From Escherichia coli (GTDB lineage: Bacteria; Pseudomonadota; Gammaproteobacteria; Enterobacterales; Enterobacteriaceae), in NCBI RefSeq assembly GCF_002854065.1, contig NZ_CP024147.1: DNA of 64,000 nt. One strand, given 5' to 3'. Under the pieces are notes generated by a model. The model was not told where the DNA came from. It searched no databases and was given only the letters and a program-made list of their open reading frames with translations. Positions within the stretch are counted from its first letter, which is position 1; every line of letters begins with the position of its first letter. The position numbers and the translations under genes are program-made. Below are positions 2,811-51,117 of the stretch, one piece after another.

Positions 2811-3100
2811 ACATTGATTTCTTAGGAAAAAAAGGGAATGTAATTTTTAATGACTTCTCCCTGAAACAAAGCATCCCTCTTAATGAACAGCGAGATGAAC
2901 TTAAGGAAGATATGCTCCAGGTTGAATATCCTGGTGGGTATCTTTTGGATGTTGGGTGGCGACCATCTTTTAATTTAAATGGGAATTTTTATATTTGTTT
3001 AATAAAGGATTTTGATTGGGATACTCCCATTTATAATGGTTCTGCGAAAGATATTGTCTCATTATTATTTGAAATTAACCAAGCTATAAATAAACTTTAA
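2807..3100 (+). CDS. Putative Rhs immunity protein (97 aa)
   Basis: Start ATG overlaps the Rhs stop (ccATGAac); AT-rich; position immediately after the Rhs tip is typical of cognate immunity genes. Confidence 0.6.
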   Translation: MNIDFLGKKGNVIFNDFSLKQSIPLNEQRDELKEDMLQVEYPGGYLLDVGWRPSFNLNGNFYICLIKDFDWDTPIYNGSAKDIVSLLFEINQAINKL

Positions 3101-3140
3101 AAAAGCCGGGAAGAAAATAACATCTTCCCGGCTTTTTTAT
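3101..3140. terminator. Bidirectional rho-independent terminator between convergent genes
   Basis: Perfect hairpin agccgggaag…cttcccggct flanked by A-run and T-run. Confidence 0.7.
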
Positions 3141-3143
3141 TAT

Positions 3144-3473
3144 TTAACTCTCGTCCAGCACACTAAACATCCCGTTCCGCATCCCCTTAACCACCTGTTT
3201 AACCTGATAAAGTTCCTCCCGCAGCTCCTGCACCTCGTCACTGTCAGCGATAATGGTCAGGCACCCCTCCGAAATCTTCACCGTGACACCCCGCCCGGTA
3301 TCAAATCCGGCCTCTTTCAGCCAGTCGCCCTTAAGGTTCAGGCAGGGGTGTCGTGAGTAGTACGTGGTCATGTAGGTTTTGCTGTTTATGTGGCGGGCTC
3401 TGACATAGCCGACTTTATAGCGGCGCTGTGTTTTGGAAATGGTGACTTCTGGCGTAATATCGTGTTCAGCCAT
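3144..3473 (-). CDS. SymE-like type I toxin (AbrB-fold endoribonuclease family)
   Basis: 109-aa ORF; segment LKGDWLKEAGFDTGRGVTVKISEGCLTIIAD aligns with the SymE core ([31 protein letters not shown]) as I remember it. Confidence 0.7.
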   Translation of the reverse strand: MAEHDITPEVTISKTQRRYKVGYVRARHINSKTYMTTYYSRHPCLNLKGDWLKEAGFDTGRGVTVKISEGCLTIIADSDEVQELREELYQVKQVVKGMRNGMFSVLDES

Positions 3474-5526: not shown

Positions 5527-7340
<1,814 letters not shown>

Positions 7341-20166: not shown

Positions 20167-20507
20167 GCAACGCCTCCGCATTAGGACGCAATGGCGTACA
20201 TGATTTCATCCTCGTTCGCGCTACCGCTATCGTCCTGACGCTCTACATCATTTATATGGTCGGTTTTTTCGCCACCAGTGGCGAGCTGACATATGAAGTC
20301 TGGATCGGTTTCTTCGCCTCTGCGTTCACCAAAGTGTTCACCCTGCTGGCGCTGTTTTCTATCTTGATCCATGCCTGGATCGGCATGTGGCAGGTGTTGA
20401 CCGACTACGTTAAACCGCTGGCTTTGCGCCTGATGCTGCAACTGGTGATTGTCGTTGCACTGGTGGTTTACGTGATTTATGGATTCGTTGTGGTGTGGGG
20501 TGTGTGA
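20160..20507 (+). CDS. sdhD: Succinate dehydrogenase membrane anchor subunit
   Basis: 115-aa hydrophobic ORF overlapping sdhC and sdhA. Confidence 0.95.
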
Positions 20508-22273: not shown

Positions 22274-22288
22274 TGCGGAGACAGGAAA

Positions 22289-23005: not shown

Positions 23006-23009
23006 ACCG

Positions 23010-23150
23010 TAGGCCTGATAAGACGCGCAAGCGTCGCATCAGGCAACCAGTGCCGGATGCGGCGTGAACGCCTTATCCGGCCTACAAGTCATTACCCGTA
23101 GGCCTGATAAGCGCAGCGCATCAGGCGTAACAAAGAAATGCAGGAAATCT
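23010..23150. repeat. REP/BIME elements between sdhB and sucA
   Basis: Repeated gtaggcctgataagacgcg…cgcatcaggc and gccggatgcggcgtgaacgccttatccggcctac units. Confidence 0.8.
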
Positions 23151-23305
23151 TTAAAAACTGCCCCTGACACTAAGACAGTTTTTAAAGGTTCCTTCGCGAG
23201 CCACTACGTAGACAAGAGCTCGCAAGTGAACCCCGGCACGCACATCACTGTGCGTGGTAGTATCCACGGCGAAGTAAGCATAAAAAAGATGCTTAAGGGA
23301 TCACG

Positions 23306-26107: not shown

Positions 26108-26121
26108 ATAAAGGATACACA

Positions 26122-27339: not shown

Positions 27340-27344
27340 TAGTT

Positions 27345-27545
27345 TAAGTTTCACCTGCACTGTAGACCGGATAAGACATTATCGCCTTCTCCGGCAATTG
27401 AAGCCTGATGCGACGCTGAACGCGTCTTATCAGGCCTACGGGAAGCACCGATGTAGGTCGGATAAGGCGCTCGCGCCGCATCCGACAAGCGATGCCAGAT
27501 GCGACGCTTGCGCGTCTTATCAGGCCTACGGGTGACCGACAATAC
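27345..27545. repeat. REP/BIME elements between sucB and sucC
   Basis: Multiple copies of the gcctgatgcgacgc / gtaggcctgataagacgcg palindromic unit. Confidence 0.8.
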
Positions 27546-27614
27546 CCGGGAGCGATACGAAATATTCGGTCTACGGTTTAAAAGATAACGATTACTGAAG
27601 GATGGACAGAACAC

Positions 27615-28781
27615 ATGAACTTACATGAATATCAGGCAAAACAACTTTTTGCCCGCTATGGCTTACCAGCACCGGTGGGTTATGCCTGTACTACTCCGCG
27701 CGAAGCAGAAGAAGCCGCTTCAAAAATCGGTGCCGGTCCGTGGGTAGTGAAATGTCAGGTTCACGCTGGTGGCCGCGGTAAAGCGGGCGGTGTGAAAGTT
27801 GTAAACAGTAAAGAAGACATCCGTGCTTTTGCAGAAAACTGGCTGGGCAAGCGTCTGGTAACGTATCAAACAGATGCCAATGGCCAACCGGTTAACCAGA
27901 TTCTGGTTGAAGCGGCGACCGATATCGCTAAAGAGCTGTATCTCGGTGCCGTTGTTGACCGTAGTTCACGTCGCGTGGTCTTTATGGCCTCCACCGAAGG
28001 CGGCGTGGAAATCGAAAAAGTGGCGGAAGAAACTCCGCACCTGATCCATAAAGTTGCGCTTGATCCGCTGACTGGCCCGATGCCGTATCAAGGACGCGAG
28101 CTGGCGTTCAAACTGGGTCTGGAAGGTAAACTGGTTCAGCAGTTCACCAAAATCTTCATGGGCCTGGCGACCATTTTCCTGGAGCGCGACCTGGCGCTGA
28201 TCGAAATCAACCCGCTGGTTATTACCAAACAGGGCGATCTGGTCTGCCTCGACGGCAAACTGGGCGCTGATGGCAACGCACTGTTCCGCCAGCCTGATCT
28301 GCGCGAAATGCGCGACCAGTCGCAGGAAGATCCGCGTGAAGCACAGGCTGCACAGTGGGAACTGAACTACGTTGCGCTGGACGGTAACATCGGTTGTATG
28401 GTTAACGGCGCAGGTCTGGCGATGGGTACGATGGACATCGTTAAACTGCACGGCGGAGAACCGGCTAACTTCCTGGACGTTGGCGGCGGCGCAACCAAAG
28501 AACGTGTAACCGAAGCGTTCAAAATCATCCTCTCTGACGACAAAGTGAAAGCCGTTCTGGTTAACATCTTCGGCGGTATCGTTCGTTGCGATCTGATCGC
28601 TGACGGTATCATCGGCGCGGTAGCGGAAGTGGGTGTTAACGTACCGGTCGTGGTACGTCTGGAAGGTAACAACGCCGAACTCGGCGCGAAGAAACTGGCT
28701 GACAGCGGCCTGAATATTATTGCAGCAAAAGGTCTGACGGATGCAGCTCAGCAGGTTGTTGCCGCAGTGGAGGGGAAATAA
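27615..28781 (+). CDS. sucC: Succinyl-CoA synthetase beta subunit
   Basis: 388-aa ORF; N-terminus [18 protein letters not shown] (ATP-grasp). Confidence 0.97.
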
Positions 28782-29650
28782 TGTCCATTTTAATTGATAA
28801 AAACACCAAGGTTATCTGCCAGGGCTTTACCGGTAGCCAGGGGACTTTCCACTCTGAACAGGCCATTGCATACGGCACCAAAATGGTTGGTGGCGTAACT
28901 CCAGGTAAAGGCGGTACTACCCACCTCGGCCTGCCGGTGTTCAACACCGTGCGTGAAGCTGTTGCTGCTACTGGCGCTACCGCTTCTGTTATCTACGTAC
29001 CAGCACCGTTCTGCAAAGACTCCATTCTGGAAGCCATCGACGCAGGCATCAAACTGATTATCACCATCACTGAAGGCATCCCGACGCTGGATATGCTGAC
29101 CGTGAAAGTGAAGCTGGATGAAGCAGGCGTTCGTATGATCGGCCCGAACTGCCCAGGCGTTATCACTCCGGGTGAATGCAAAATCGGTATCCAGCCTGGT
29201 CACATTCACAAACCGGGTAAAGTGGGTATCGTTTCCCGTTCCGGTACACTGACCTATGAAGCGGTTAAACAGACCACGGATTACGGTTTCGGTCAGTCGA
29301 CCTGTGTCGGTATCGGCGGTGACCCGATCCCTGGCTCTAACTTTATCGACATTCTCGAAATGTTCGAAAAAGATCCGCAGACCGAAGCGATCGTGATGAT
29401 CGGTGAGATCGGCGGTAGCGCTGAAGAAGAAGCAGCTGCGTACATCAAAGAGCACGTTACCAAGCCAGTTGTGGGTTACATCGCTGGTGTGACTGCGCCG
29501 AAAGGCAAACGTATGGGCCACGCGGGTGCCATCATTGCCGGTGGGAAAGGGACTGCGGATGAGAAATTCGCTGCTCTGGAAGCCGCAGGCGTGAAAACCG
29601 TTCGCAGCCTGGCGGATATCGGTGAAGCACTGAAAACTGTTCTGAAATAA
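28781..29650 (+). CDS. sucD: Succinyl-CoA synthetase alpha subunit
   Basis: 289-aa ORF; N-terminus [45 protein letters not shown]. Confidence 0.97.
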
Positions 29651-29750
29651 ATATCTGTAATAAGAAATAGCCCTCGCCGCTTCCCTCTACAGGAATGGCG
29701 AAGGGCTGTCGGTTTCGACATGGTTGGCCATCGTATGATGGCCTTTTTTA
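29651..29750 (+). ncRNA. sdhX: Candidate SdhX (RybD)-type 3'UTR-derived sRNA ending at the sucD terminator
   Basis: Sequence shows two hairpins after the sucD stop, the second (ggccatcgtatgatggcc + T-run) a rho-independent terminator; SdhX is known to derive from the sucD 3'UTR in E. coli; the sRNA sequence itself is not verified from memory. Confidence 0.45.
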
Positions 29751-30316
29751 TGCCTTAAACGGTTAACCACGGTCGAAATCTGACTGCAGGCTTGACTGCA
29801 TGACCACAGCCACTGTGGATTGCCGCAACCGACCGCAAGCCACGAATAAGAACGACGGCGAATTTCGAATCGTTACCTGATGCACTGGCTTCCCAGCGTT
29901 TGACCGTAGCGTTAAGTAAATCAACAAAAGCGATGTTCACCGCTTTTCGTCAAGTCGTGCCATTTGTCAGCCAGGATCGGGTCTTTACCCCGGATATTGC
30001 AGCATCGCAAAAATTCTTAGAGGGATATGCTATAAATCAAAAATAAAATCTTTGTTGATTGTTTATCATAATATCCACAGATATGATAAATGATATCAAT
30101 TTAATAATTTTCACTTAATGTGATTCCGGATAATTCGAAAGGCGCTGTGCTTTTCGGATTATTATTATCTGATTAAGATATTTGTCACGCCAGGCTTACT
30201 GGTTTATAAATGTCAATCATGATTCTTATAAATTATTTATTGCTGCTTTGGTTACCATTACTTCGTAATAAGTAATGTATTTTTGATTGTTTAAACTATT
30301 TTTAAGGGACGGCATT

Positions 30317-30418
30317 ATGCGAGGGAAAATACCTAAAACGGAACTGCTGGTGACTTTTGAGGTCGTCGCACGTCATGAAAGTTATACCAGAGCGGCAGAG
30401 GAGTTAGCGTTAACCCGG
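30317..30418 (+). pseudogene. LysR-type transcriptional regulator, N-terminal 34 codons only, truncated by IS1
   Basis: MRGKIPKTELLVTFEVVARHESYTRAAEELALTR resembles the LysR winged-HTH start; the reading frame runs into the IS1 terminus and stops on IS1 sequence. Confidence 0.6.
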
Positions 30419-30431
30419 TAATGACTCCAAC

Positions 30432-30935
30432 TTATTGATAGTGTTTTATGTTCAGATAATGCCCGATGACTTTGTCATGCAGCTCCACCGATTTTGAGAA
30501 CGACAGCGACTTCCGTCCCAGCCGTGCCAGGTGCTGCCTCAGATTCAGGTTATGCCGCTCAATTCGCTGCGTATATCGCTTGCTGATTACGTGCAGCTTT
30601 CCCTTCAGGCGGGATTCATACAGCGGCCAGCCATCCGTCATCCATATCACCACGTCAAAGGGTGACAGCAGGCTCATAAGACGCCCCAGCGTCGCCATAG
30701 TGCGTTCACCGAATACGTGCGCAACAACCGTCTTCCGGAGCCTGTCATACGCGTAAAACAGCCAGCGCTGGCGCGATTTAGCCCCGACGTATCCCCACTG
30801 TTCGTCCATTTCCGCGCAGACGATGACGTCACTGCCCGGCTGTATGCGCGAGGTTACCGACTGCGGCCTGAGTTTTTTAAATGGCGGAAAATCGTGTTGA
30901 GGCCAACGCCCATAATGCGGGCGGTTGCCCGGCAT
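30432..30935 (-). CDS. insB: IS1 InsB (C-terminal transposase domain, expressed as InsAB' by -1 frameshift)
   Basis: 167-aa ORF …[47 protein letters not shown]… matches IS1 InsB. Confidence 0.95.
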
Positions 30936-31129
30936 CCAACGCCATTCATGGCCATATCAATGATTTTCTGGTGCGTACCGGGTTGAGAAGCGGTGTAAGT
31001 GAACTGCAGTTGCCATGTTTTACGGCAGTGAGAGCAGAGATAGCGCTGATGTCCGGCAGTGCTTTTGCCGTTACGCACCACCCCGTCAGTAGCTGAACAG
31101 GAGGGACAGCTGATAGAAACAGAAGCCAC
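30854..31129 (-). CDS. insA: IS1 InsA (transposition inhibitor / N-terminal part of the InsAB' transposase)
   Basis: 91-aa [46 protein letters not shown]… matches IS1 InsA. Confidence 0.95.
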
Positions 31130-31184
31130 TGGAGCACCTCAAAAACACCATCATACACTAAATCAGTAAGTTGGCAGCATCACC

Positions 31185-31655
31185 CACCACGATTTGCAAA
31201 ATTTCATTGTGCGCCATGGCATCGACAATGCTGGTGGGGAAAGCATGCGAAATAAATACTTTTAGCGTAAAGGGTTCTGCCGCGACCACTCCGGTGGTTT
31301 CGGCACCGTGTGCAACAAAATTAATTCCTGTACCTGGCATGAAGAAATTTACCGTTATCAAGCCTAAGGCAATTGACAGCAATGAGGCGCAAATAAATAA
31401 AAAGAGTGTTTTAGAAAAAATACGACCAAGGGCTTTGGCATCGCCCATTTTAGCAATACCTACCACCAGGGTAGAGACCACTAACGGAGCGATAATCATT
31501 TTTATCAGTCGTAAGAAAATCGTCGTGAATATCGATATTTCTTGCGCATAGAGTTTTGCGGTTTCCGGTGAAGCAGTGTTATTGAGCACTACGCCGATAA
31601 TCATTCCAAGTACCAGCGCCAAAAGAATCATCGTGGTTAAACTTATTTTCTTCAT
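31185..31655 (-). pseudogene. Glutamate/dicarboxylate:cation symporter (DAACS family, GltP/DctA-like), N-terminal ~157 codons, 3'-truncated by IS1
   Basis: IFLRLIKMIIAPLVVSTLVVGIAKMGDAKALGRIFSKTL… aligns with the GltP N-terminal region; GGAGG RBS before ATG at 31655; the ORF continues into IS1, where it terminates. Confidence 0.8.
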
Positions 31656-31815
31656 TTTTTCCTCCATCAGGTGCACGGCGATAAATCAGAATCAGGAGAA
31701 GTAGATGCCTGAATAGAGATTCAGGCATCTACCTGCTATTACAACCTTACAAATAGCTGAAGTGTTGAACTGCAATAAGTGACGGGATGTCAGTTGGCTA
31801 AAAGTATTCGGATTT

Positions 31816-32133
31816 TTACAAATCGAAACTCATATTTAATAAAGGTGCATGTTGCTGTGCACCATAGACATCATTGTCACCTACATTCCCGGAGATAATA
31901 TCTCGTGGCATGACGATTTTTACTGCGTTAGAAGGATCAAACCAGACAATACGATGAATAAAGTCAGGTTCAACATGATATAAGCGCGCAATCAGTTCTG
32001 GGGTTAATTGCCCTGATGATTTAACTCGCTCATAGTTTTCTTTCGTTTTAAATAAAATATCTAAAACCAGTTCGTAAGGTCCGGCATTTTTCGAACGAAT
32101 GACTTGCGCCAGTGAGACAATTGACTGTTTCAT
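31816..32133 (-). CDS. DUF4387-family protein (105 aa), function unknown
   Basis: Small ORF translationally coupled (ATGA overlap) to the upstream DUF1446 gene; family assignment is from memory of the AtuA-partner family. Confidence 0.6.
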   Translation of the reverse strand: MKQSIVSLAQVIRSKNAGPYELVLDILFKTKENYERVKSSGQLTPELIARLYHVEPDFIHRIVWFDPSNAVKIVMPRDIISGNVGDNDVYGAQQHAPLLNMSFDL

Positions 32134-33500
32134 GCCTGAACTCCTTCTGGCGTCACCTGTTCAATATGGAAATCAAAACGCAGAGCGTCGTTGGCTTCAA
32201 TCAGGTGATATATGGAAAATTCGTATACCGGCCCGCCCTGGATATCAGAAGGGGAGAACGGGAACGCCAGGTTGCCTGCGGTAGCGATGCGGTTTTCATA
32301 GCCGTAGTGCAGCATGGTAGAGCGCACCAGCGAGCAAACGCTATTGGCAATTTCCTGGGTCGGTGCAACTACATCAAGGACAATCCCCAGCTCATGCCCG
32401 GCAGTTTGCATCGGTTCATGGTCGCCCATCACCCCGTTTTTACCGTACAGGTGGAAAATGATGCGAATGCTGTCATCGTCTAACGACAGGTTACGCGAAA
32501 CGCTGGTTTTGACTTCATCGATGATTTTATCGATCCCGGCGATCATGATCGGGTCGCGCGTTCCGGCGATGGTCAGACAGCGGAAGCCCACCCGTCGCGC
32601 ACCTTCCAGTTTCAGGGCATACGGCGTTTCTTCATGCTTAGAACCGCTGACGTACACTTCGCCGTCATTGACTGCTTTAAATGTGCAGCCTTTCAGGTTC
32701 AACACGCCGCCAGGTCCTGGCAGGAAGTAGGGATCGGATTTCTCATACAGTGTGTGTGCAGCTGCTGACGTTTCGGTAAATTTACGCTTCGGATTAAATG
32801 TCTTCAGCGTAAAGCCGTTGTCATCAATGATGCCCATCGCACAGTCAGAGCCTGAGCCGGGCGTTGCGGCGATTGCTGCGCACTCAAGGATTTTCCCACA
32901 ATGCAGCGCCAGACCTTCATCAAAGCCTTGCATGATCGGTAGCGCAGCAAAGCAGGCCGGGTCGTAAGCGCGCCCACCCAGCACCACTTGCGCGCCTTCT
33001 TTCAGCGCCCGCTGGAAGGGTTCGATGCCCATTTGCGCGACGATATACGTACTTTCGTCAATCGCGTCGTGGGTTAACGGCGGGACAAAATCCAGCGCCG
33101 TGATTTTGCCGTTATCCAGCGCCTGGTGGACGATGGCTTTGTCAACGTCTGCCGGGATCAACGCCATCGAGAACGAGAGGTGCTCTTCCTGGGCAATCTC
33201 ATGAATTATTTCTCGGCACCACTCCAGGTGTGGTGCGGCACCAGAACCGCCAGCCGTTCCGATCACCACCGGTATATTATTTTGCACGCCTGCGGTGATC
33301 ATATAGCGCAGATCGCGCTTGACCCCTGCGCGATCGGTAAACGGTTTGCCTGCCCCGAGGTAGTGGGGGCCTGGATCGGAAGAGCCTGCATCAACGGCGA
33401 TCAGATCGGGCGATTCTGCCATCGCTTTACGGAAGCTCTCTTCCGGGAATCCATACCCGAGGATTGCCGTTGGCGATAAGACTTTAAAAGAACGAGCCAT
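32130..33500 (-). CDS. DUF1446 / AtuA-like protein (456 aa), function unknown
   Basis: ORF immediately downstream of the methylaspartase gene (3-nt gap); AtuA-like assignment from sequence recollection, not a search. Confidence 0.6.
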   Translation of the reverse strand: MARSFKVLSPTAILGYGFPEESFRKAMAESPDLIAVDAGSSDPGPHYLGAGKPFTDRAGVKRDLRYMITAGVQNNIPVVIGTAGGSGAAPHLEWCREIIHEIAQEEHLSFSMALIPADVDKAIVHQALDNGKITALDFVPPLTHDAIDESTYIVAQMGIEPFQRALKEGAQVVLGGRAYDPACFAALPIMQGFDEGLALHCGKILECAAIAATPGSGSDCAMGIIDDNGFTLKTFNPKRKFTETSAAAHTLYEKSDPYFLPGPGGVLNLKGCTFKAVNDGEVYVSGSKHEETPYALKLEGARRVGFRCLTIAGTRDPIMIAGIDKIIDEVKTSVSRNLSLDDDSIRIIFHLYGKNGVMGDHEPMQTAGHELGIVLDVVAPTQEIANSVCSLVRSTMLHYGYENRIATAGNLAFPFSPSDIQGGPVYEFSIYHLIEANDALRFDFHIEQVTPEGVQA

Positions 33501-33503
33501 TTG

Positions 33504-34745
33504 TTAATCCTTAGCCTGCAACAGCGCGATAGTACGATTCATTTCGTTGAAGACGATATCGAGGCCTTCGTCAAAACCCATCCCTGGTTTTACCAGCATA
33601 CGCATAGGGCGAGCGGCAAGGGCGACGTGGACACAGGTGCGGGCACTAACATCAGTTTCATTGCAGGTGCCGCCCTGGTACGCTTCCATGCTGTGGCTGT
33701 TGCAGTAAAGAACCGCATCGACGATGTTGTGAATACTTCCAAGATCCGGGGTTTTGATTTGCACCATGTGACAACTGGCGGCATCAGTGAAATCAACAAT
33801 ATCCTGGTAGGTGTTACACCATTCATCGGCCACAATTTTCACGCCGGAACCGAGGCGCGTCAGCTCTTTGGTAATCGCGGTCAGCAGGCGAATTTGGTCG
33901 GGCTTGTTACCGGCATCGACCGGCCCTTCAATGTAGAGCGGCAGGCCTTGCGCTTCTTTTTCCAGGCTGGCGATGTATTGCGCACAGCGAAGCGGATCCA
34001 TATCGAAGATCAGACCGATAGTGCCGTATACATCGATGTGCAGGGTAGGGTGGTAGCGTGCGCTGGTGCGCTTGCTCAGAATGCGATCCGACAGCCAGCG
34101 GACATATTCGCGCAGTTTTTCACCTTTAAAGCCCAGCTTCTCTTCGACGTTATTAATCAGCGCATGGGGCAGCACGTCGATGCCCTTAAGGATCATCTTA
34201 TCGACGGCGATATATCGATCGTCGCCGCTCTGGCCAAATAATGGAATGGATTCCGCCACGTGTGGCAACTGCCATTCATCACAGACCACTTCAGTTTTCA
34301 GACGGCCGGTTGCCAGCGCAGTAGCATCAAGCAGCGCCTGTGATAATCCGTAGCGCACGGCGGTATGCAGCAAGTTGCCGTCAATACGCAGTTTGTCGAA
34401 GAAACGGGCATTCGGCAGGAAAGCATCCACATCGCGGCCTACCAGTAATGGCTTGATATGGTCGTTGAGGAACGGAATAAAGTGCTCTGCGAGGAACAGT
34501 GGATCGCGACCACCTGCCCCGGAATACTGTACGGCAGCACAGTCACCTACAGCGACCGCGCCGTTTTCCAGAATCAACTGTACCGATACGCACTCCCCGG
34601 CCTGACGAACGGCGTTAAACCCCTGTGTTACCGGCTCCCCGGTATAAAAAAAGCCGTCATGACCCGCTCCGTTTTTTATCGCCTGCTGGTCATCGAAATA
34701 GAATGAGGAGTAGCCAGCGGTGAACAGAGCCTGTTTTATTTTCAT
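33504..34745 (-). CDS. mal: 3-methylaspartate ammonia-lyase (methylaspartase, enolase superfamily)
   Basis: 413-aa ORF; strong similarity to clostridial methylaspartase as I remember it (…FYFDDQ.AIK.GAGHDGF.YTG…CAAVQYSGAGGRDPLFLA…HMVQIKTPDLG…). Confidence 0.9.
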   Translation of the reverse strand: MKIKQALFTAGYSSFYFDDQQAIKNGAGHDGFFYTGEPVTQGFNAVRQAGECVSVQLILENGAVAVGDCAAVQYSGAGGRDPLFLAEHFIPFLNDHIKPLLVGRDVDAFLPNARFFDKLRIDGNLLHTAVRYGLSQALLDATALATGRLKTEVVCDEWQLPHVAESIPLFGQSGDDRYIAVDKMILKGIDVLPHALINNVEEKLGFKGEKLREYVRWLSDRILSKRTSARYHPTLHIDVYGTIGLIFDMDPLRCAQYIASLEKEAQGLPLYIEGPVDAGNKPDQIRLLTAITKELTRLGSGVKIVADEWCNTYQDIVDFTDAASCHMVQIKTPDLGSIHNIVDAVLYCNSHSMEAYQGGTCNETDVSARTCVHVALAARPMRMLVKPGMGFDEGLDIVFNEMNRTIALLQAKD

Positions 34746-36190
34746 TATGGTCTTTCTATTAATTTACTGTGGGATACAGCATTGATGTCATCTACAACCA
34801 TCTGGAATGTCGGTTGGCGTCCTTCAAAGCGTGCGCGTTCCGCGACGTAATCGTGGTGGAGGTCGAGAATATCTTTTGGCAATGGAACGGCTCCGGCTTC
34901 CAGTACGCGTATCGCGCCGGTGTTGTCACGGACCGGAAGAATATTGCCCGCGTTGCAGGCGGCTGGCGCAAACGGCACATCCAGTACGCCCGCTTCAAAT
35001 GCCAGCACCGTACCGCGCGCAATATCACCATTACCCAGTTCGAACACTTTATTCAGTACCGCGCGAACCTCGCTCTTAATCAGTTCAATTTCCAGTTCAA
35101 CCGCAGGGCACGGCGGGAATTTCTGCTCATTGACCATGTTGAGCATCTGGCGGGAGGCTTTCAGCCCCTGAATGTTGGCAGCGGCAGTCGGGATACCCCA
35201 GGCTTCGTGCGGACTTTTGGTGATGACTTTGGTGGCACCAGACATCCCCGCGACGGCTGCGCCCCAGGAGATAATAGCGAACGCTTTCGATTCGTCTTCC
35301 GGAAAGCCGCCCATCCACTGGTGAAACACGGTACTCAATTCATAGTCGGTATAGCCATAGCTCTGAAAGTATTCGTGTGCAAGTTCACGCAGAGACTGGA
35401 TCGCCGCAACATCCTGCGTCAGGCTGCCGACCTGGCCATAACCAACGGTGATAGATTTCACACCCTGTTCCAGTGCCAGCAAGCCTTCGATTATCGCGAT
35501 AGAGTGCGAGATAAACGGCGGGATCAGCGTACCCGTTAGTGGGCCAAACGGTTCGCGGTTGATGCGGATCCCGTGTTCTTCATACATCCCCATTAAACGG
35601 TCGCAGTACTGCCAGTCGCGGATCGATTTTTCCAGCGTTACGCGTTTGGCATACGGAATGTTGTAGGAAATGCCACCGCCTTCATAACTGGTAAAGCCGC
35701 TGGCCATTGAGATTTCAGCCAGCAGACGCGCATCTGGCGTGCCGTGGCGGATCTGTAGCGGTTTTTGCAGGGTTTCGGTGAGGCGACGGCAAGCTGCGAC
35801 ACCATGGTTAACTACCGGTAAACCGTTCAGTTTAGAGGTTCCGGCTTCGATGGATTTTTTAATCCCTACAGCCGCTTCTTCGTACCGATTCAGACGGGTA
35901 TATGCATCGATGGTGCTTGGCAGCAGATCGCACTCTTCTTGTAGTGTTTTCAGCAGTTCGATGTGTTCGTCCATCAGCGCCACACCTGCGCGCGGTTGGC
36001 TAAGGGTTTTACCTTCCTTGTCTGCTTTCAGCAGCGCAAGAGAGAAGCGTTTATGCTCAGGGATGGTTTGTTGGTATTTAACGCCATCTTCAAAGATTTC
36101 AACATCCTTGCCGGTTTCCCAGGTTTTCAGTACCTGTTGCCGCTCGGTCATGAATTCGTCATGGGTTAATTTCTTATTTCGAAGTTCCAT
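34745..36190 (-). CDS. glmE: Glutamate mutase E subunit (methylaspartate mutase epsilon chain)
   Basis: 481-aa ORF, 1-nt stop/start overlap with mal; size and position match GlmE/MutE. Confidence 0.85.
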   Translation of the reverse strand: MELRNKKLTHDEFMTERQQVLKTWETGKDVEIFEDGVKYQQTIPEHKRFSLALLKADKEGKTLSQPRAGVALMDEHIELLKTLQEECDLLPSTIDAYTRLNRYEEAAVGIKKSIEAGTSKLNGLPVVNHGVAACRRLTETLQKPLQIRHGTPDARLLAEISMASGFTSYEGGGISYNIPYAKRVTLEKSIRDWQYCDRLMGMYEEHGIRINREPFGPLTGTLIPPFISHSIAIIEGLLALEQGVKSITVGYGQVGSLTQDVAAIQSLRELAHEYFQSYGYTDYELSTVFHQWMGGFPEDESKAFAIISWGAAVAGMSGATKVITKSPHEAWGIPTAAANIQGLKASRQMLNMVNEQKFPPCPAVELEIELIKSEVRAVLNKVFELGNGDIARGTVLAFEAGVLDVPFAPAACNAGNILPVRDNTGAIRVLEAGAVPLPKDILDLHHDYVAERARFEGRQPTFQMVVDDINAVSHSKLIERP

Positions 36191-36208
36191 TGATTGCAGC
36201 CTTAATTG

Positions 36209-37597
36209 TTATAGGGTTAAGCATTGAATACTGGTGCGCGCGGCGGCCAGCGGATCGACTCTGGCGACGTTTGCCAGCAGTGGTAATAGCCCCCGGGAAT
36301 CGCGGTAATATTCAAATTCGGTCGGTAAGAGAATGCGTTTACCGTCGTCGTTTAACTCGCGGTATTTCAACCAGTGATGCATATCGAACTGACTGGCACG
36401 CGAGAGCCATCCGCCGGATCCGACGACTTTACGCACGGTTGTCAGGTCACGTCCCATCTGTAAATCGACATTGCCGACGCAGGTGCAGACCTCTTTTTTG
36501 GTGCCCGCATGTCTTTCGGTGGCATAACCCACACACAGTCCGGCCAGGACGGTATCGAAATATTTCTCTTCTGCATTTGCGGGTAAGTAGTCGGGATGAG
36601 CGACTAGATGACGGAGGTAATGATAAAAAGCGTCCAGCTGTGCGGGTTGCTGAGCAAAATTCACATTGACTAACTCTTTCGCACTTTCACCAACCACCAC
36701 TGCCGAGACGCGCATTCCCAGATCGCCTTCCACCGTCCGTTTTACGAAGGGTTCCGGTACGCCGTGTAAAACGGTGTCGGGCGAGAGCGTGTTGGCACAG
36801 GCGGAATAAACATCGGTGGTTGCGCCGCCCATGTCGATCAGCATGAACTCTTTCCAGCTGTGATCGACGTTACTGATTGCCTTGACCAGTTCAAAGACCG
36901 TCCATGGTGTCGGCATTGGTTCTTCGCCTGTTTTATCAACAATGACATCCAGCCCTTTCCCTTTAACGATGCGTTTAAGGAATATGTCGCAAATAGCCTG
37001 GCGTGCGGCTAAAGGGTTCGGATGGTCAAGATCGGGCAGAACATTGTCGACGATGGTCAGGTCTTTATGCCCGAGGATCTCCTGCACCTCGTCCTGAATA
37101 TCCCGGTTTCCGGCATAAATAATGGCGCAGTCGAGTTTGGATTCTGCCAGCACACGGGCGTTATTCAGTCCGTAGCTTTCTTCTCCGCCGTCGGTGCCGC
37201 CGGTGAACAAGAGAATATCGGGCTGCGTTTCTTCCAGTGCCTGGATATCACGGCGGTTCAGCTTGTAGGCGTAATATTGCGCAATTTTAGCACCCGCAGA
37301 GTGAGCGGTTACTTTCGCGGTTTCCAGGGTGATAGAAGGCACCAATCCCATTGCGGCAACCGCCAGCCCACCTTTGGCAGAGGAGGAATACTTCAATGCA
37401 ACCTCACCGCTGTTTAACAGGGGGAGGGCATTATCTACGTTTAACACCTGGTTCAGGCTGGAGAAAAACCCCTTCGCCAGATGATGGGTGGTGGTTGGGG
37501 TCAGTACGTGGTTAACCAACGTTAACGCGTCCCCCTCCCGGGTGAAGAGGGCTGCTTTGGTCCACGTCGATCCAATATCGACAGAGACGATTTGCAT
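36209..37597 (-). CDS. glmL: Glutamate mutase-associated protein GlmL/MutL (ASKHA-fold ATPase-like)
   Basis: 462-aa ORF between glmS and glmE, as in clostridial glutamate mutase operons. Confidence 0.8.
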   Translation of the reverse strand: MQIVSVDIGSTWTKAALFTREGDALTLVNHVLTPTTTHHLAKGFFSSLNQVLNVDNALPLLNSGEVALKYSSSAKGGLAVAAMGLVPSITLETAKVTAHSAGAKIAQYYAYKLNRRDIQALEETQPDILLFTGGTDGGEESYGLNNARVLAESKLDCAIIYAGNRDIQDEVQEILGHKDLTIVDNVLPDLDHPNPLAARQAICDIFLKRIVKGKGLDVIVDKTGEEPMPTPWTVFELVKAISNVDHSWKEFMLIDMGGATTDVYSACANTLSPDTVLHGVPEPFVKRTVEGDLGMRVSAVVVGESAKELVNVNFAQQPAQLDAFYHYLRHLVAHPDYLPANAEEKYFDTVLAGLCVGYATERHAGTKKEVCTCVGNVDLQMGRDLTTVRKVVGSGGWLSRASQFDMHHWLKYRELNDDGKRILLPTEFEYYRDSRGLLPLLANVARVDPLAAARTSIQCLTL

Positions 37598-38046
37598 CAG
37601 ATAGCCTCTTCAAGAATACGAGTATCAACGTCATGACGTTGGTTGATATCGTGGGCCATCAGCTGACAAACATCTTCTAAGTCATGACTTGGGGCAAAGA
37701 CGCGATCAAATCCCATCTCTTTGAATTTGGTTTCCACGTCAGCGAAGTCATGTTTTCCGACCACCAGGTTACCGCCCACATAGAGCAGGATGTCCCCCAG
37801 TCCACGCTCGATGCAGCGTTCGCGCATGCCCAGACAGTCGATATCGCCATGCCCATAGATAGAGGAGACGACAATCGCGTCAGCGCCAGTTTCAATGGCC
37901 GCATCAATATATTCGTCCTGGCTGACCATTACGCCCAGATTAATGACTCTGAAGTCGTGGTTGCTAAAAACGCGGTCCAGAACTTTATTGCCTACTGCAT
38001 GGCAGTCCGCGCCAATAACGCCAATCACAAGTGTTGCTTTCTTCAT
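37597..38046 (-). CDS. glmS: Glutamate mutase S subunit (B12-binding sigma chain)
   Basis: About 149 aa from [24 protein letters not shown]…; cobalamin-binding DxHxxG motif (ADCHAVG); TGATG overlap with glmL. Confidence 0.9.
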
Positions 38047-38592
38047 GGGTAATCCTTTGTAAGACAGAGAGTAAAATAAGTTACACACGTCGTATTTATG
38101 GCCGTTCATAACGGCACAGGTTTAATATCACAGGAGTGTCTTTATCTGACCGTAATGTTGCAATTGATCTATTTTCAAAATGTCTTTCGGGAAATGATTG
38201 TTTAAAGTGTGTTTTTAAATTCCCATGTTAATTCAGTATGTTATGTCAACTAATGTCATGAATGTTAAATTTTTAAAATTAACTTGATTTAATGTATTGA
38301 GATAATTGTGATCTACTTCTAATTTGCATTTTAGTGATATGGGTTTAGCCATGAGTAAATGCATTTCATAAAATTTAAGTCGAATTTCACTGCAATTCAT
38401 CTCTGCTTAATGTAAAAATAATGTTGAAAATAACAAATGGTTAATGATTCATGCGAATTATGACGTTAGTTAGCTCTTTTGATTTTTCGTAAAAAAGAGA
38501 GGTACATGAAGGTGCTACCAGTATGAGTAACGTTAATCAAAGGTTTTATTACGTCTGGCAATAACGCAGGCCATTTTCGCGACTGGGTGGAT

Positions 38593-39015
38593 TTAATCAG
38601 TATAATCCTCATACAATATTTCAGGATTAACTGAACCGTTAACCGGGTTTTGGTGTTGAAATTTAGAAATGGCGGAGTCAATCAATGAAGACAGTATCGA
38701 AAAAATAACTGTGTCAGAACTAATTTCAATTAATCCTTCTCGTTGTTGACCAAAAAAGATATTTATCTTGATTTCATTTGTACTACGGCAATCAATATGT
38801 AGTAATTTTTGATCGCTGAGATTTTCTGTTTCATAAATGTTTTTGGCGATAGTCGGATGTATTGATGCCAGACATCTGCTCAGATAAGCCAGATCCTTTA
38901 GGGAACACCCCGCTGAGTAGAGGATGTCAGAGAATTTTTGTGTGTCAACTGTTGTCTCTGAAGCGTATGTTGCATTGACAGGAAGGGTGTTGAAAGAGAT
39001 TTGAGATGGGATCAT
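38593..39015 (-). CDS. Hypothetical acidic protein (140 aa) in AT-rich segment
   Basis: ORF in a strongly AT-rich region; no recognisable motif. Confidence 0.5.
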   Translation of the reverse strand: MIPSQISFNTLPVNATYASETTVDTQKFSDILYSAGCSLKDLAYLSRCLASIHPTIAKNIYETENLSDQKLLHIDCRSTNEIKINIFFGQQREGLIEISSDTVIFSILSSLIDSAISKFQHQNPVNGSVNPEILYEDYTD

Positions 39016-39096
39016 TATTTAAATCTTTCCGTGAGTAATAAAAATTAATCCCCAGGCATTGTTTAACAATATTTGCCATAGGGGATATATAGAAAA

Positions 39097-40041
39097 TTAA
39101 AGTATTTTATTGGCTTCGGTTAACTGATCTATAACCAGTGCCAGATTGGTAAACATTTTGAAAAAGCGATACTGGCTCGGAATATCTCTTTCAAAGACGA
39201 AACATTCAAGGTCATTGTTTGAAAAATAAAGGACTAGTGTTGCTGATTCGTCAGGGAAAACATGGAAATGTATCTGGTTACCAGAAGGAGGATAGTCCAG
39301 AAGAAGGGTATCTTTGCCCGTCACATACCTGTTGTTGTCGTGGACGCTACGCTCACACTTCATCAGAGGTGTCAGGATACTCATGTATTCATCTGATGTT
39401 AATTTATTAAAATCATCATTCATTTTAAAGAAACGATAAAGTAACAGTACATCCTCTTGCGTAACCGGTTCGTTTGTTTTTAGAGGGAAATAAGCGGGAA
39501 CCAGAAGATGAGGTTCTAATCTATTTTGTTGAGCGCTATAACTGAATTTGAACATAAATTCCGGATCGCTCATCAATTGAGCGACATAATTATGCCTGGC
39601 TTCGAAAATTTTAATTTTTATCAGGTTAAATAAGTCTGTTTCGTCATCCTGTATTAAAAGACATTGGCCATAGCAGCCAGGCTTTTTTTCATTATAAGCA
39701 GAAACGGTTATTCTGTCAGAGGTGTCAACGTTATATTCAAAAGCCAGATAGTGACCTTCTTCATCGCGATTTGTTTCCAGGTTATTTAAATTCATCACAT
39801 GAAGTGTTTGCAATGCTGATTCAATGAGCTGTTGACTCTCTGAGGTAAATGTTTCGCGCTGCGTTGTATAAAGTGTATCAATTCCAACGACTATCCGATG
39901 TGGGTCAAGGATGGCGGCAATCATCTTTATTACCTGCACAGTCACGGGTGATGTCATTGATTCTTTATCTGTTTTTAGAGAATCATTAGATGGCCAACCT
40001 GAGAAGCGATTGACAGCCGAACCGATATTATCAGGACTCAT
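39097..40041 (-). CDS. Hypothetical protein (314 aa) in AT-rich segment
   Basis: ORF with Ser/Asn/Pro-rich N-terminus, no transmembrane segments, no recognisable catalytic motif; co-directional with the 140-aa ORF. Confidence 0.55.
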   Translation of the reverse strand: MSPDNIGSAVNRFSGWPSNDSLKTDKESMTSPVTVQVIKMIAAILDPHRIVVGIDTLYTTQRETFTSESQQLIESALQTLHVMNLNNLETNRDEEGHYLAFEYNVDTSDRITVSAYNEKKPGCYGQCLLIQDDETDLFNLIKIKIFEARHNYVAQLMSDPEFMFKFSYSAQQNRLEPHLLVPAYFPLKTNEPVTQEDVLLLYRFFKMNDDFNKLTSDEYMSILTPLMKCERSVHDNNRYVTGKDTLLLDYPPSGNQIHFHVFPDESATLVLYFSNNDLECFVFERDIPSQYRFFKMFTNLALVIDQLTEANKIL

Positions 40042-40547
40042 AGCAGCAACCTCATTGTAATCAAGCGAGGCGCTGAGCGTACTCGGCTATAGAAAAACTA
40101 ACTTGCAAAAATCGCTCATTTTTCATTTATCAGGCGAAAGTGGTCTCTGTACACTCAGAAACAATCACTCCCGCTAAGTCATACCTGTTTCATCGATACA
40201 TTTAAGTGATTATTACTAATGAAACAATAACATAACGGGCTTACGGTCGGTGCTCATAAAGGCAACAATCAATTAACTTTGATAAAAATATGTTATGTAA
40301 AATAGCAACAAATTGGCTACTCTAATCAATTGGTATTATAAAAAGTGGATAAGGCGGTTCTGTTAAATAAAATACTGGTTTTTTATCTATACCTTTTCAT
40401 TGTAATAATTGTGTTGCATAAATATTTCACAATAAATTAACAATAAAATCACCAATGATCTATGGTTTATACATAATTAACATATTTGGTTGGTTTTGAT
40501 ATAAATCAATTTTTAATTCTTGAAAAAAATCTGCAAAACACGATAAA

Positions 40548-40561
40548 TTGTCGTAGATCAA
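40548..40561. promoter_or_regulatory. Putative FNR/CRP-family site in the cydA upstream region
   Basis: ttgtcgtagatcaa matches TTGAT-N4-ATCAA with one mismatch; cydAB is known to be FNR/ArcA-regulated. Confidence 0.3.
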
Positions 40562-40846
40562 ATTGATGAGATCGTGACAATTTCGCTATAAATTGATCAC
40601 TGTCGAAAAATGCAAATTTGCTCAATAAAAACCTGTTTATTGTAAGGATTTTGCGGCGTAATATAATTACGGGATCAATTTGGTTTATTCATTAACATAT
40701 TTGTAACTTTTTTATCATTGTCTTTTCCTCTTTTGATGAAATGGCAACGATAGGGGCGAGCAAATAATTTTGTATTGGGGCATGCGTGTGACCCTTTCTA
40801 ACGGGGTTCACTCTCGGAGTCTTCATGCGATGAGCAAGGAGTCATG

Positions 40847-42415
40847 ATGTTAGATATAGTCGAACTGTCGCGCTTACAGTTTGCCTTGACCGCGATGTAC
40901 CACTTCCTTTTTGTGCCACTGACGCTCGGTATGGCGTTCCTGCTGGCCATTATGGAAACGGTCTACGTCCTTTCCGGCAAACAGATTTATAAAGATATGA
41001 CCAAGTTCTGGGGCAAGTTGTTTGGTATCAACTTCGCTCTGGGTGTGGCTACCGGTCTGACCATGGAGTTCCAGTTCGGGACTAACTGGTCTTACTATTC
41101 CCACTATGTAGGGGATATCTTCGGTGCGCCGCTGGCAATCGAAGGTCTGATGGCCTTCTTCCTCGAATCCACCTTTGTAGGTCTGTTCTTCTTCGGTTGG
41201 GATCGTCTGGGTAAAGTTCAGCATATGTGTGTCACCTGGCTGGTGGCGCTCGGTTCAAACCTGTCCGCGCTGTGGATTCTGGTTGCAAACGGCTGGATGC
41301 AAAACCCAATCGCGTCCGATTTCAACTTTGAAACTATGCGTATGGAGATGGTGAGCTTCTCCGAGCTGGTGCTTAACCCGGTTGCTCAGGTGAAATTCGT
41401 TCACACTGTAGCGTCTGGTTATGTGACTGGCGCGATGTTCATCCTCGGTATCAGCGCATGGTATATGCTGAAAGGTCGTGACTTCGCCTTCGCTAAACGC
41501 TCCTTTGCTATCGCTGCCAGCTTCGGTATGGCTGCCGTTCTGTCTGTTATTGTTCTGGGTGATGAATCCGGCTACGAAATGGGCGACGTGCAGAAAACCA
41601 AACTGGCTGCTATTGAAGCTGAGTGGGAAACGCAACCTGCGCCTGCTGCCTTTACTCTGTTCGGCATTCCTGATCAGGAAGAGGAGACGAACAAATTTGC
41701 GATCCAGATCCCTTACGCGCTGGGCATCATTGCAACGCGTTCCGTGGATACTCCAGTTATCGGCCTGAAAGAACTGATGGTGCAGCATGAAGAACGCATT
41801 CGTAACGGGATGAAGGCGTACTCTCTGCTCGAGCAACTGCGTTCTGGTTCTACCGACCAGGCGGTTCGTGACCAGTTCAACAGCATGAAGAAAGACCTCG
41901 GTTACGGTCTGCTGCTGAAACGCTATACGCCAAACGTGGCTGATGCGACTGAAGCGCAGATTCAACAGGCAACCAAAGACTCCATTCCGCGTGTAGCGCC
42001 GCTGTACTTCGCGTTCCGTATCATGGTGGCGTGTGGCTTCCTGCTGCTGGCAATCATCGCGCTCTCTTTCTGGAGTGTCATCCGCAACCGCATTGGCGAG
42101 AAAAAATGGCTCCTGCGCGCCGCGCTGTACGGTATTCCGCTGCCGTGGATTGCTGTAGAAGCGGGCTGGTTCGTGGCTGAATATGGCCGCCAACCGTGGG
42201 CTATCGGTGAAGTGCTGCCGACAGCTGTGGCGAACTCGTCACTGACCGCAGGCGATCTCATCTTCTCAATGGTGCTGATTTGCGGCCTGTATACCCTGTT
42301 CCTGGTGGCAGAATTGTTCTTAATGTTCAAGTTTGCACGCCTCGGCCCAAGCAGCCTGAAAACCGGTCGCTATCACTTTGAGCAGTCTTCCACGACTACT
42401 CAGCCGGCACGCTAA
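40847..42415 (+). CDS. cydA: Cytochrome bd-I ubiquinol oxidase subunit I
   Basis: 522 aa from [28 protein letters not shown]. Confidence 0.97.
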
Positions 42416-48461: not shown

Positions 48462-49007
<546 letters not shown>

Positions 49008-49016
49008 GAGAATTGC

Positions 49017-49808
49017 ATGAGCAGTAACTTCAGACATCAACTATTGAGTCTGTCGTTACTGGTTGGTATAGCGGCCCCCTGGGCCGCTTTTGCTCAGGCA
49101 CCAATCAGTAGTGTCGGCTCAGGCTCGGTCGAAGACCGCGTCACTCAACTTGAGCGTATTTCTAATGCTCACAGCCAGCTTTTAACCCAACTCCAGCAAC
49201 AACTCTCTGATAATCAATCCGATATTGATTCCCTGCGTGGTCAGATTCAGGAAAATCAGTATCAACTGAATCAGGTCGTGGAGCGGCAAAAGCAGATCCT
49301 GTTGCAGATCGACAGCCTCAGCAGCGGTGGTGCAGCGGCGCAATCAACCAGCGGTGATCAAAGCGGTGCGGCGGCATCAACGACGCCGACAGCTGATGCT
49401 GGTACTGCGAATGCTGGCGCGCCGGTGAAAAGCGGTGATGCAAACACGGATTACAATGCAGCTATTGCGCTGGTGCAGGATAAATCCCGCCAGGATGACG
49501 CAATGGTGGCATTTCAGAATTTCATCAAAAATTACCCTGATTCAACTTACCTGCCAAACGCCAATTATTGGCTGGGTCAGTTAAACTACAACAAGGGTAA
49601 AAAAGATGATGCGGCGTACTATTTTGCTTCGGTAGTGAAAAACTATCCGAAGTCACCAAAGGCTGCAGATGCGATGTTTAAAGTCGGTGTCATCATGCAG
49701 GACAAAGGTGACACCGCAAAAGCGAAAGCCGTATACCAGCAGGTTATCAGTAAATACCCTGGTACTGATGGCGCTAAACAGGCACAAAAACGTCTGAACG
49801 CGATGTAA
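49017..49808 (+). CDS. cpoB: Cell division coordinator CpoB (YbgF; TPR protein)
   Basis: 263-aa ORF with signal peptide, coiled coil and TPR region; last gene of the tol-pal cluster. Confidence 0.95.
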   Translation: MSSNFRHQLLSLSLLVGIAAPWAAFAQAPISSVGSGSVEDRVTQLERISNAHSQLLTQLQQQLSDNQSDIDSLRGQIQENQYQLNQVVERQKQILLQIDSLSSGGAAAQSTSGDQSGAAASTTPTADAGTANAGAPVKSGDANTDYNAAIALVQDKSRQDDAMVAFQNFIKNYPDSTYLPNANYWLGQLNYNKGKKDDAAYYFASVVKNYPKSPKAADAMFKVGVIMQDKGDTAKAKAVYQQVISKYPGTDGAKQAQKRLNAM

Positions 49809-49972: not shown

Positions 49973-50048
49973 GGGTCGTTAGCTCAGTTGGTAGAGCAGT
50001 TGACTTTTAATCAATTGGTCGCAGGTTCGAATCCTGCACGACCCACCA
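49973..50048 (+). tRNA. lysT: tRNA-Lys (anticodon UUU)
   Basis: 76-nt GGGTCGTTAGCTCAGTTGGTAGAGC…CTTTTAATC…GGTTCGAATCCTGCACGACCCACCA. Confidence 0.97.
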
Positions 50049-50083
50049 CTAACCTAGTTAGTTGTAGTATCCAGCGTAGTATC

Positions 50084-50159
50084 GGGTGATTAGCTCAGCT
50101 GGGAGAGCACCTCCCTTACAAGGAGGGGGTCGGCGGTTCGATCCCGTCATCACCCACCA
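50084..50159 (+). tRNA. valT: tRNA-Val (anticodon UAC)
   Basis: 76-nt GGGTGATTAGCTCAGCTGGGAGAGC…CCTTACAAGG…GGTTCGATCCCGTCATCACCCACCA. Confidence 0.97.
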
Positions 50160-50161
50160 CC

Positions 50162-50237
50162 GGGTCGTTAGCTCAGTTGGTAGAGCAGTTGACTTTTAAT
50201 CAATTGGTCGCAGGTTCGAATCCTGCACGACCCACCA
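50162..50237 (+). tRNA. lysW: tRNA-Lys (anticodon UUU)
   Basis: Identical to the first tRNA-Lys copy. Confidence 0.97.
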
Positions 50238-50288
50238 CTAATTACGGTGGGTTCGGTGGAAGTAGTTTGTAGTATCCAGCGCAGTATC

Positions 50289-50364
50289 GGGTGATTAGCT
50301 CAGCTGGGAGAGCACCTCCCTTACAAGGAGGGGGTCGGCGGTTCGAACCCGTCATCACCCACCA
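50289..50364 (+). tRNA. valZ: tRNA-Val (anticodon UAC)
   Basis: As valT, with a T-arm variant (GGTTCGAACCC). Confidence 0.97.
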
Positions 50365-50367
50365 CTC

Positions 50368-50443
50368 GGGTCGTTAGCTCAGTTGGTAGAGCAGTTGACT
50401 TTTAATCAATTGGTCGCAGGTTCGAATCCTGCACGACCCACCA
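50368..50443 (+). tRNA. lysY: tRNA-Lys (anticodon UUU)
   Basis: Identical tRNA-Lys copy. Confidence 0.97.
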
Positions 50444-50589
50444 GTTTTAACATCAAACTCAGATGTTAAGCGTGAAGGATAACGTTGCGCCAGCAACGGC
50501 CCGTAGGGCGAGCGAAGCGAGTCATCCTGCACGACCCACCAATCTTAAAGATTGGCCCCGAGTAAAAATCTTTCAGGTAACACCCGTAT

Positions 50590-50665
50590 GGGTCGTTAGC
50601 TCAGTTGGTAGAGCAGTTGACTTTTAATCAATTGGTCGCAGGTTCGAATCCTGCACGACCCACCA
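50590..50665 (+). tRNA. lysZ: tRNA-Lys (anticodon UUU)
   Basis: Identical tRNA-Lys copy. Confidence 0.97.
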
Positions 50666-50698
50666 TCCTGAATGATTAAAGCAGCATAATCCCGCAAG

Positions 50699-50774
50699 GG
50701 GTCGTTAGCTCAGTTGGTAGAGCAGTTGACTTTTAATCAATTGGTCGCAGGTTCGAATCCTGCACGACCCACCA
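50699..50774 (+). tRNA. lysQ: tRNA-Lys (anticodon UUU)
   Basis: Identical tRNA-Lys copy, followed by a terminator. Confidence 0.97.
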
Positions 50775-50778
50775 ATGT

Positions 50779-50808
50779 AAAAAAGCGCCCTAAAGGCGCT
50801 TTTTTGCT
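50779..50808 (+). terminator. Rho-independent terminator of the tRNA operon
   Basis: aaaaaagcgccctaaaggcgcttttttgct; a second copy lies at 50935–50965. Confidence 0.8.
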
Positions 50809-51117
50809 ATCTGCGATACTCAAAGATTCGAACCTGCAGCAGGTTTGAGTTGAGCGTAGCGAAACAACGGAGCCGCTCGCGGCGACGGCCCGAAGGGCGA
50901 GCGAAGCGAGTCATCCTGCACGACCCACCAATGTAAAAAAGCGCCCTAAAGGCGCTTTTTTGCTATTCAGGCATCTCTCAATTTCAATTCTTGACCCTGA
51001 TGACATACTTCGCGCTTGCTGCGTAAACAACTTTACGTCGGAGGAATAAGACGCAAAGTGTGGCATTCGGCATCTCATACGTAATTCGAGTGACTTTTCC
51101 CCACCATTCGACTATCT

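Follow-up and report, generated by a model that had tools for sequence, protein, structure and literature searches.

The DNA directly behind the sucD stop codon of this E. coli strain raises two questions: do the two stem-loops found there belong to SdhX, an sRNA cut from the mRNA of its parent operon, and how does that RNA relate to the variable DNA that begins just past its 3′ end? We addressed both within the window, by which we mean the whole 64,000-nucleotide stretch of DNA that was analysed.

The element after sucD

The ORF that ends where the element begins is named sucD after annotated E. coli records that match it at 99-100% identity, and homology to annotated records places sdhA/B-sucA/B/C upstream of it, the parent operon being sdhCDAB-sucABCD, of which sucD is the last gene. 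The stretch 29651..29749, which begins after the stop codon and closes with the T-run, is identical to the sucD 3′UTR of E. coli K-12 MG1655 at 99 of 99 positions, and the first mismatch falls at 29750, where the window has an A and K-12 a G. When numbering starts at 29651, C34 is the C at 29684 and G62 the G at 29712, in agreement with the positions of published mutants, and at the published processing site (G62/UUU) the surrounding sequence does not differ from K-12. A short form of 38 nt that ends with the U-run would have its 5′ end at that same site, G62/UUU, as reported for SdhX2 (PMC6393394). The original prediction had described two stem-loops after the sucD stop and had named SdhX as a candidate. 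Both stem-loops are present where it placed them; the element lies in the sucD 3′UTR and on the same strand, as SdhX does; it contains all of the published parts, being identical to K-12 SdhX at every base that was aligned; and the seed UUCGACAUGGU, on whose conservation the assignment hinged, is unchanged at 29714..29724. Judged by its sequence, 29651..29749 is an exact copy of the well-studied sRNA SdhX at its known place, and in that sense it is already known.

Table 1. Features of the sucD-cydA region, in window coordinates.
Feature	Position	Strand	Basis
sucD (succinyl-CoA synthetase alpha subunit)	28781..29650	+	ORF, 289 aa; TAA at 29648..29650
SdhX (RybD), long form, ~100 nt	29651..29749	+	K-12 identity; approximate 5′ end
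Hairpin 1 (upstream; variable, E. coli-specific part)	29669..29708	+	MFE and centroid folds
Putative short form SdhX2, 38 nt, seed plus terminator	29712..29749	+	38 nt counted back from the U-run end
Seed UUCGACAUGGU, core CGACAU	29714..29724	+	exact match to published seed (PMC6393394)
Rho-independent terminator stem-loop, 7 bp, 4-nt loop GUAU	29726..29743	+	terminator scan
U6 tail, 3′ end of operon transcript, expected Hfq-binding end	29744..29749	+	sequence, terminator scan
Breakpoint zone, where four E. coli cassette types diverge	29750..29757		alignment of four types
Variable segment in place of K-12 mngRAB	29758..40470		blastn vs K-12, strain 117 and W4; annotated records
RtcB-family gene, convergent, two pseudogene fragments	29758..29849	-	blastn to intact W4 rtcB
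hutH (histidine ammonia-lyase) remnants	29853..30046	+	blastn to W4 hutH, 87-89% identity
IS1, complete, 768 bp, typical inverted ends	30417..31184
DUF4387, AtuA-like, methylaspartate ammonia-lyase, glutamate mutase E, GlmL, GlmS	31816..38046	-	annotated records
Two AT-rich hypothetical ORFs	38593..39015 and 39097..40041	-

Examination of the predicted secondary structure shows an upstream hairpin, a seed and a terminator. Hairpin 1 is formed by the arms AGCCCTCGCC (29669..29678) and GGCGAAGGGCT (29698..29708), with 10 pairs, one bulged A and an additional inner 4-bp stem; CUUCCCUCU, which surrounds C34, falls in its loop and 3′ side and is, according to published work, the part that pairs with the Shine-Dalgarno sequence of katG (PMC6393394). 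The seed stretch, of which 8 of 12 nucleotides are unpaired in the fold, is a short linker just upstream of the terminator (GGCCATC-GTAT-GATGGCC). The 101-nt stretch as a whole folds at -41.3 kcal/mol, compared with -25 +/- 3.5 for dinucleotide shuffles (z = -4.7), and none of the 200 shuffles did as well. The terminator scan taken alone is at chance level (2 sites against 1.5 expected in 1.6 kb), and the decisive evidence is the identity with K-12 together with the presence of the element in 5425 of 5426 complete E. coli genomes.

A search of 29651..29749 against Rfam had no match at the gathering score. Relaxing the threshold to E<=10 brought up chance-level matches only (isrD at 17 bits, tmRNA at 7 bits), none of them to a family called SdhX or RybD. 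The absent match is evidence neither for nor against the identity of the element as SdhX. It does have a practical consequence: because SdhX has no Rfam match and is unannotated in the RefSeq/PGAP E. coli records inspected, a copy such as this one would go unlabelled, and its annotation is the main importance of the present assignment.

Other parts of the window gave Rfam matches above the gathering score. An isrA match (113 bits), an ES036/CssrF match (75 bits) and two naRNA4/CssrE REP-type elements lie at 3274..3402, 5589..5631, 23012..23082 and 27456..27526; one REP-type element sits between sucB and sucC, at a place where strain 117 lacks ~180 nt that are present in both the window and K-12. 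Hairpin 1 was considered as a REP element and rejected, the REP-like naRNA4 matches lying elsewhere (from 23012 and 27456). Further along, a CpoB/ybgF thermometer (Rfam, 142 bits), a seven-gene tRNA array and two RtT elements occupy 48908..49046 and 49973..50930; the tRNA array is Lys/Val in the matching K-12 annotation, and the order is that of the K-12 tol-pal-cpoB-lysT operon.

Some sRNAs have their own promoter inside a gene, as MicL does in cutC, and SdhX might likewise be transcribed independently from within the 3′ end of sucD rather than arise as a processing product. We regard this as extremely unlikely. There is a weak promoter-like site at 29205..29232 with 9 of 12 matches, but such sites occur at chance level (3 against 2.9 expected), and although SdhX and SucD levels are not always in step (Miyakoshi et al., PMC6393394), the published data contain neither a transcription start site nor a conserved promoter, and both RNA species are lost in an rne-ts mutant (PMC6393394).

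Conservation of the element and pairing with ackA

Within E. coli, the search behind the near-universal count used a 113-nt query that spans the element and includes 8 bases of the variable zone; nearly all hits are at 95% identity or more. Across the four cassette types that occur downstream, the element is unchanged except for one loop base and one extra T in W4. The genome of FDAARGOS_944 departs from this pattern: an IS1 (at about 2579..3390 of its locus sequence) lies inside SdhX, at the equivalent of window position 29723, and parts the seed from the terminator. This is, by sequence, a natural sdhX disruption, the sole clear case among the 5426 genomes.

Other genera were scanned with one genome per species and the pattern TTTCGACATGGT-N14-26-TTTTTT. 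There were at least 120 matches and, among the matches listed, 25 lie 29-80 nt downstream of a sucD orthologue. These come from 25 species in at least 11 enterobacterial genera, and include Escherichia albertii, Citrobacter, Enterobacter, Kluyvera, Superficieibacter, Siccibacter, Mangrovibacter, Pseudocitrobacter, Pluralibacter, Phytobacter and Lelliottia; the other 95 listed matches fall in unrelated taxa or phyla, which fits our estimate of roughly 100 matches by chance. All 25 listed sucD-associated sequences fold as a variable upstream hairpin, a seed and a terminator, the upstream hairpin having the same place and a different sequence in each of the other species, and the U-run measuring T6 to T8, of which T6 was demanded by the pattern. 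When 18 distinct sequences from other genera are aligned, 97.6% of the cells of the terminator stem are paired, and three of its seven pairs change on both sides, values that none of 500 shuffles reached. The seed and T6 were conditions of the pattern itself, and the set is therefore evidence for the layout and for its link to sucD but gives no measure of seed conservation.

These data bear on another reading, in which the hairpin pair serves solely as a cis-acting 3′ end (a terminator and an mRNA-stabilising stem-loop) with no trans role in this strain. [quoted passage not shown] A purely cis-acting 3′ end is nevertheless very improbable in view of the exact seed that stands between the hairpins after sucD in at least 11 genera while the flanks diverge freely, the 10-bp complementarity of that seed to the ackA start region, and the identity of the element to an RNA whose action on ackA, katG and fdoG has been proved with compensatory mutations (PMC6393394).

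In published work, SdhX, formerly called RybD, is cut by RNase E from the ~10-kb sdhCDAB-sucABCD mRNA, exists in forms of ~101 nt and ~38 nt, binds Hfq and represses ackA through the seed UUCGACAUGGU (core CGACAU) just 5′ of the terminator (PMC6393394, PMC9438474). E. coli SdhX also represses fdoG, which involves G62, and katG, which involves C34 in the variable upstream part; compensatory mutations back the regulation of ackA, katG and fdoG, and Hfq-dependent repression has been established in this way in K-12 and in Salmonella (PMC6393394).

Since ackA lies outside the window, we took its start region from O157:H7 strain PV15-279, in which SdhX and the junction are 100% identical to the window. 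Of 5424 E. coli records, 5406 agree at 99% identity or more over the first 150 nt of the ackA coding sequence. Using this ackA sequence, the seed is complementary to the start codon and the second codon: UUCGACAUGG pairs with CCAUGUCGAG over 10 bp that cover the AUG and the UCG codon. The duplex between the linker and ackA has a predicted energy of -16.7 kcal/mol, and 9 of 1000 shuffled linkers do as well. An 81-aa antisense ORF (29476..29721) was rejected as a gene; it overlaps sucD and is annotated in no inspected record. The ATG of this ORF is the reverse complement of the CAU in the seed, a consequence of the seed mimicking the complement of the ackA start.

We conclude that 29651..29749 is very probably the sdhX gene, the sucD 3′UTR giving rise to a processed, trans-acting sRNA that represses ackA; for this strain, its transcription, processing by RNase E, binding to Hfq and repression of targets are expected by analogy with the published K-12 and Salmonella experiments. 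The sdhCDAB-sucABCD transcript of roughly 10 kb would end at the hairpin and U6 (29726..29749), and RNase E would cut off the 3′ end near the sucD stop codon and cut again just 5′ of the seed, yielding Hfq-bound RNAs of about 100 nt and 38 nt. Through the single-stranded seed these RNAs would then pair with the start codon region of the ackA mRNA and lower the synthesis of acetate kinase, so that expression of the TCA-cycle operon would be coupled to acetate metabolism; the upstream part would, as published for E. coli, also repress katG, and the G62 region fdoG. This regulatory link between the TCA cycle and acetate appears to be intact in a strain whose neighbouring DNA was replaced and then eroded.

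A short hairpin made of part of the seed and an upstream copy of its complement can form in most genera (29708..29719 in the window), as GUCG...CGAC in E. coli and as AUGUC...GACAU in Enterobacter, Pluralibacter, Kluyvera and Lelliottia. The predicted SdhX2 cleavage site lies in the loop of this seed-sequestering hairpin, and processing would therefore free the seed. Published data indicate that both SdhX forms are about equally active.

The variable segment and the sucD-cydA site

K-12 homology extends from 17803 to 29757 (with the end between 29749 and 29757) and starts again at 40471, which is 375 nt upstream of cydA (ORF 40844..42415), so that 10.7 kb in the window replace the 5.9-kb mngRAB of K-12. 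Megablast end points fall at 29751 and 29757, and the sequence that can be aligned to K-12 ends by 29757; the convergent rtcB remnant has its stop codon at 29755..29757 (TTA). The original prediction had set the start of the acquired DNA directly after SdhX, and the boundary agrees, variable DNA beginning 1-8 nt past the U-run; the sRNA and the operon terminator are thus untouched by any downstream cassette. Its further statement, that insertion of an island had preserved the terminator, stands as far as the terminator goes, which is intact, but insertion is too simple a description for what is a multi-allelic site.

By homology to annotated records, the variable segment is a decayed form of the known methylaspartate (glutamate-fermentation, FumD) cluster, which occurs in O157:H7 and in about a quarter of E. 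coli strains (Kronen and Berg, PMC4682846). The fullest form, that of W4, reads sucD, SdhX, convergent rtcB, hutU, a permease, hutD-I-G-H, LysR, cobO and fumD, followed by a glutamate/dicarboxylate symporter, DUF4387, AtuA-like, methylaspartate ammonia-lyase, glutamate mutase E, GlmL, GlmS, two hypothetical genes and cydA. In the window, the rtcB fragments at 29758..29790 and 29793..29849 match two separate pieces within W4 rtcB, and the hutH remnants consist of an internal piece and the 3′ end. The DNA abutting SdhX is no working island gene but the dead remnant of a convergent rtcB, and then a hutH remnant. A 61-aa minus-strand ORF at 29755..29940 was rejected both as a C-terminal remnant of the MngR/HutC family, its translation being unlike MngR, and as a gene, blastn showing it to be made of rtcB and hutH fragments; it stops where K-12 mngR stops.

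The IS1 at 30417..31184 has no target-site duplication (its flanks are GTTAACCC and CACCACGA), and at this point roughly 4 kb of strain 117 are missing, comprising cobO and fumD together with the 3′ parts of the LysR and glutamate/dicarboxylate symporter genes. This looks like an IS1-mediated adjacent deletion, which would have left the cluster without its mesaconase, B12 adenosyltransferase and regulator. None of the complete E. coli genomes in the collection has both IS1 junctions together; the left one occurs in two, EC2641 and MEW, apparently at an identical position. At the right end of the variable segment lies an AT-rich block (38000..40999 of the window, GC 0.35-0.37 against 0.50-0.55 in its neighbours). 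A relative of the larger AT-rich ORF (39097..40041) is also found between sucD and cydA in E. albertii.

The segment does not have the look of an integrase-borne island at an RNA gene. The annotated homologous clusters contain no integrase, the left junction shares no word of 8 nt or more with either right junction that could be an att-like repeat, and no duplicated 3′ end of an RNA gene was found at the variable segment; the GC content of the enzyme genes (0.50-0.55) is like that of the flanks. The segment more likely came in by exchange through sucD and cydA, the conserved genes on either side, than by site-specific integration.

Among complete E. coli genomes, SdhX is followed by mngR (the mngRAB type) in 3884 of 5426, by the window's junction with the decayed methylaspartate cluster in 835, by intact rtcB (the full rtcB-hut-methylaspartate form) in 291 and by a TPR-protein segment (at least 90% identity) in about 550, these being counts from separate searches that overlap slightly. 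All four types diverge within the same 1-8 nt past the U-run. In other genera the site may be empty, with cydA ~600-800 nt past the terminator (Enterobacter sp. Bisph1, E. asburiae, Siccibacter, Mangrovibacter, Pluralibacter and Phytobacter), or may carry an mngR whose end is no more than 8 nt from the U-run (Kluyvera, Pseudocitrobacter and an Enterobacter MAG), and in three Citrobacter species the LysR gene of the cluster lies ~2.2 kb downstream. With at least four contents in E. coli and empty sites in other genera, the mngRAB of K-12 is as much cargo as the island of the window. From these alignments, sucD-cydA is more accurately described as a multi-allelic cargo site that has the SdhX 3′ end as its left edge and mngRAB as one of its alleles. 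The position of the boundary just past the U-run, in E. coli and in other genera, fits selection that keeps the sRNA and the terminator amid turnover; the recurrence of this boundary across cassettes and genera is the only, mildly new point.

Could the exchange of the downstream DNA have altered the output of SdhX, through termination efficiency or a loss of antisense transcription, leaving its structure intact and its quantity unlike that in K-12? The base after the U-run is A in the window and G in K-12. In K-12 the convergent mngR stops 4 nt past the U-run; as no T-run follows the hairpin on the minus strand, mngR transcripts could read antisense through SdhX. The convergent gene of the window is a dead rtcB fragment. 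Against this, the hairpin and U6 are unchanged, neither background offers evidence of antisense transcription, and the junction is common to 835 genomes, O157:H7 among them; we consider an altered output improbable. An extension of this idea, about which we are equally doubtful, is that across the Enterobacteriaceae a recurrent, multi-allelic cargo site between sucD and cydA has its left edge fixed at the SdhX terminator and that the state of the site (empty, mngRAB, rtcB-hut-methylaspartate or TPR) could tune the level or activity of SdhX. A convergent mngR or rtcB that stops within 8 nt of the U-run and has no terminator of its own would send transcripts antisense across the SdhX seed; if so, this antisense input would have been lost in the window, where the convergent gene is a dead fragment.

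Relation to known systems

Cargo hot spots are known beside small-RNA or tRNA genes, for example at the ryeA/ryeB locus in Salmonella. The sucD-cydA site resembles them in that variable DNA starts immediately past a conserved, intact RNA gene, and differs from them in that the window has no integrase, att-like repeat or duplicated RNA 3′ end.

K-12 SdhX shares with the element its sequence, its place at the end of sdhCDAB-sucABCD, the seed, the hairpins and the terminator. The differences are confined to the downstream side, where K-12 has a G and then the mngR stop codon 4 nt past the U-run, whereas the window has an A followed by the rtcB remnant and the methylaspartate cluster. Salmonella enterica SdhX, compared by its published description (SdhX1 of 87 nt and SdhX2 of 38 nt), is likewise 3′ end-derived, processed by RNase E and dependent on Hfq, and has the core seed and ackA as a conserved target; it differs in its upstream region, which lacks a katG-pairing region, and in having a U at position 62, and its targets are fumB and yfbV rather than katG or fdoG (PMC6393394). 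CpxQ, NarS, SroC, GlnZ and MalH follow the same plan of a terminator, RNase E cleavage and a seed just 5′ of the terminator (PMC9438474). Their parent operons and targets are different, and SdhX is unusual in how little it conserves beyond its seed and U-run.
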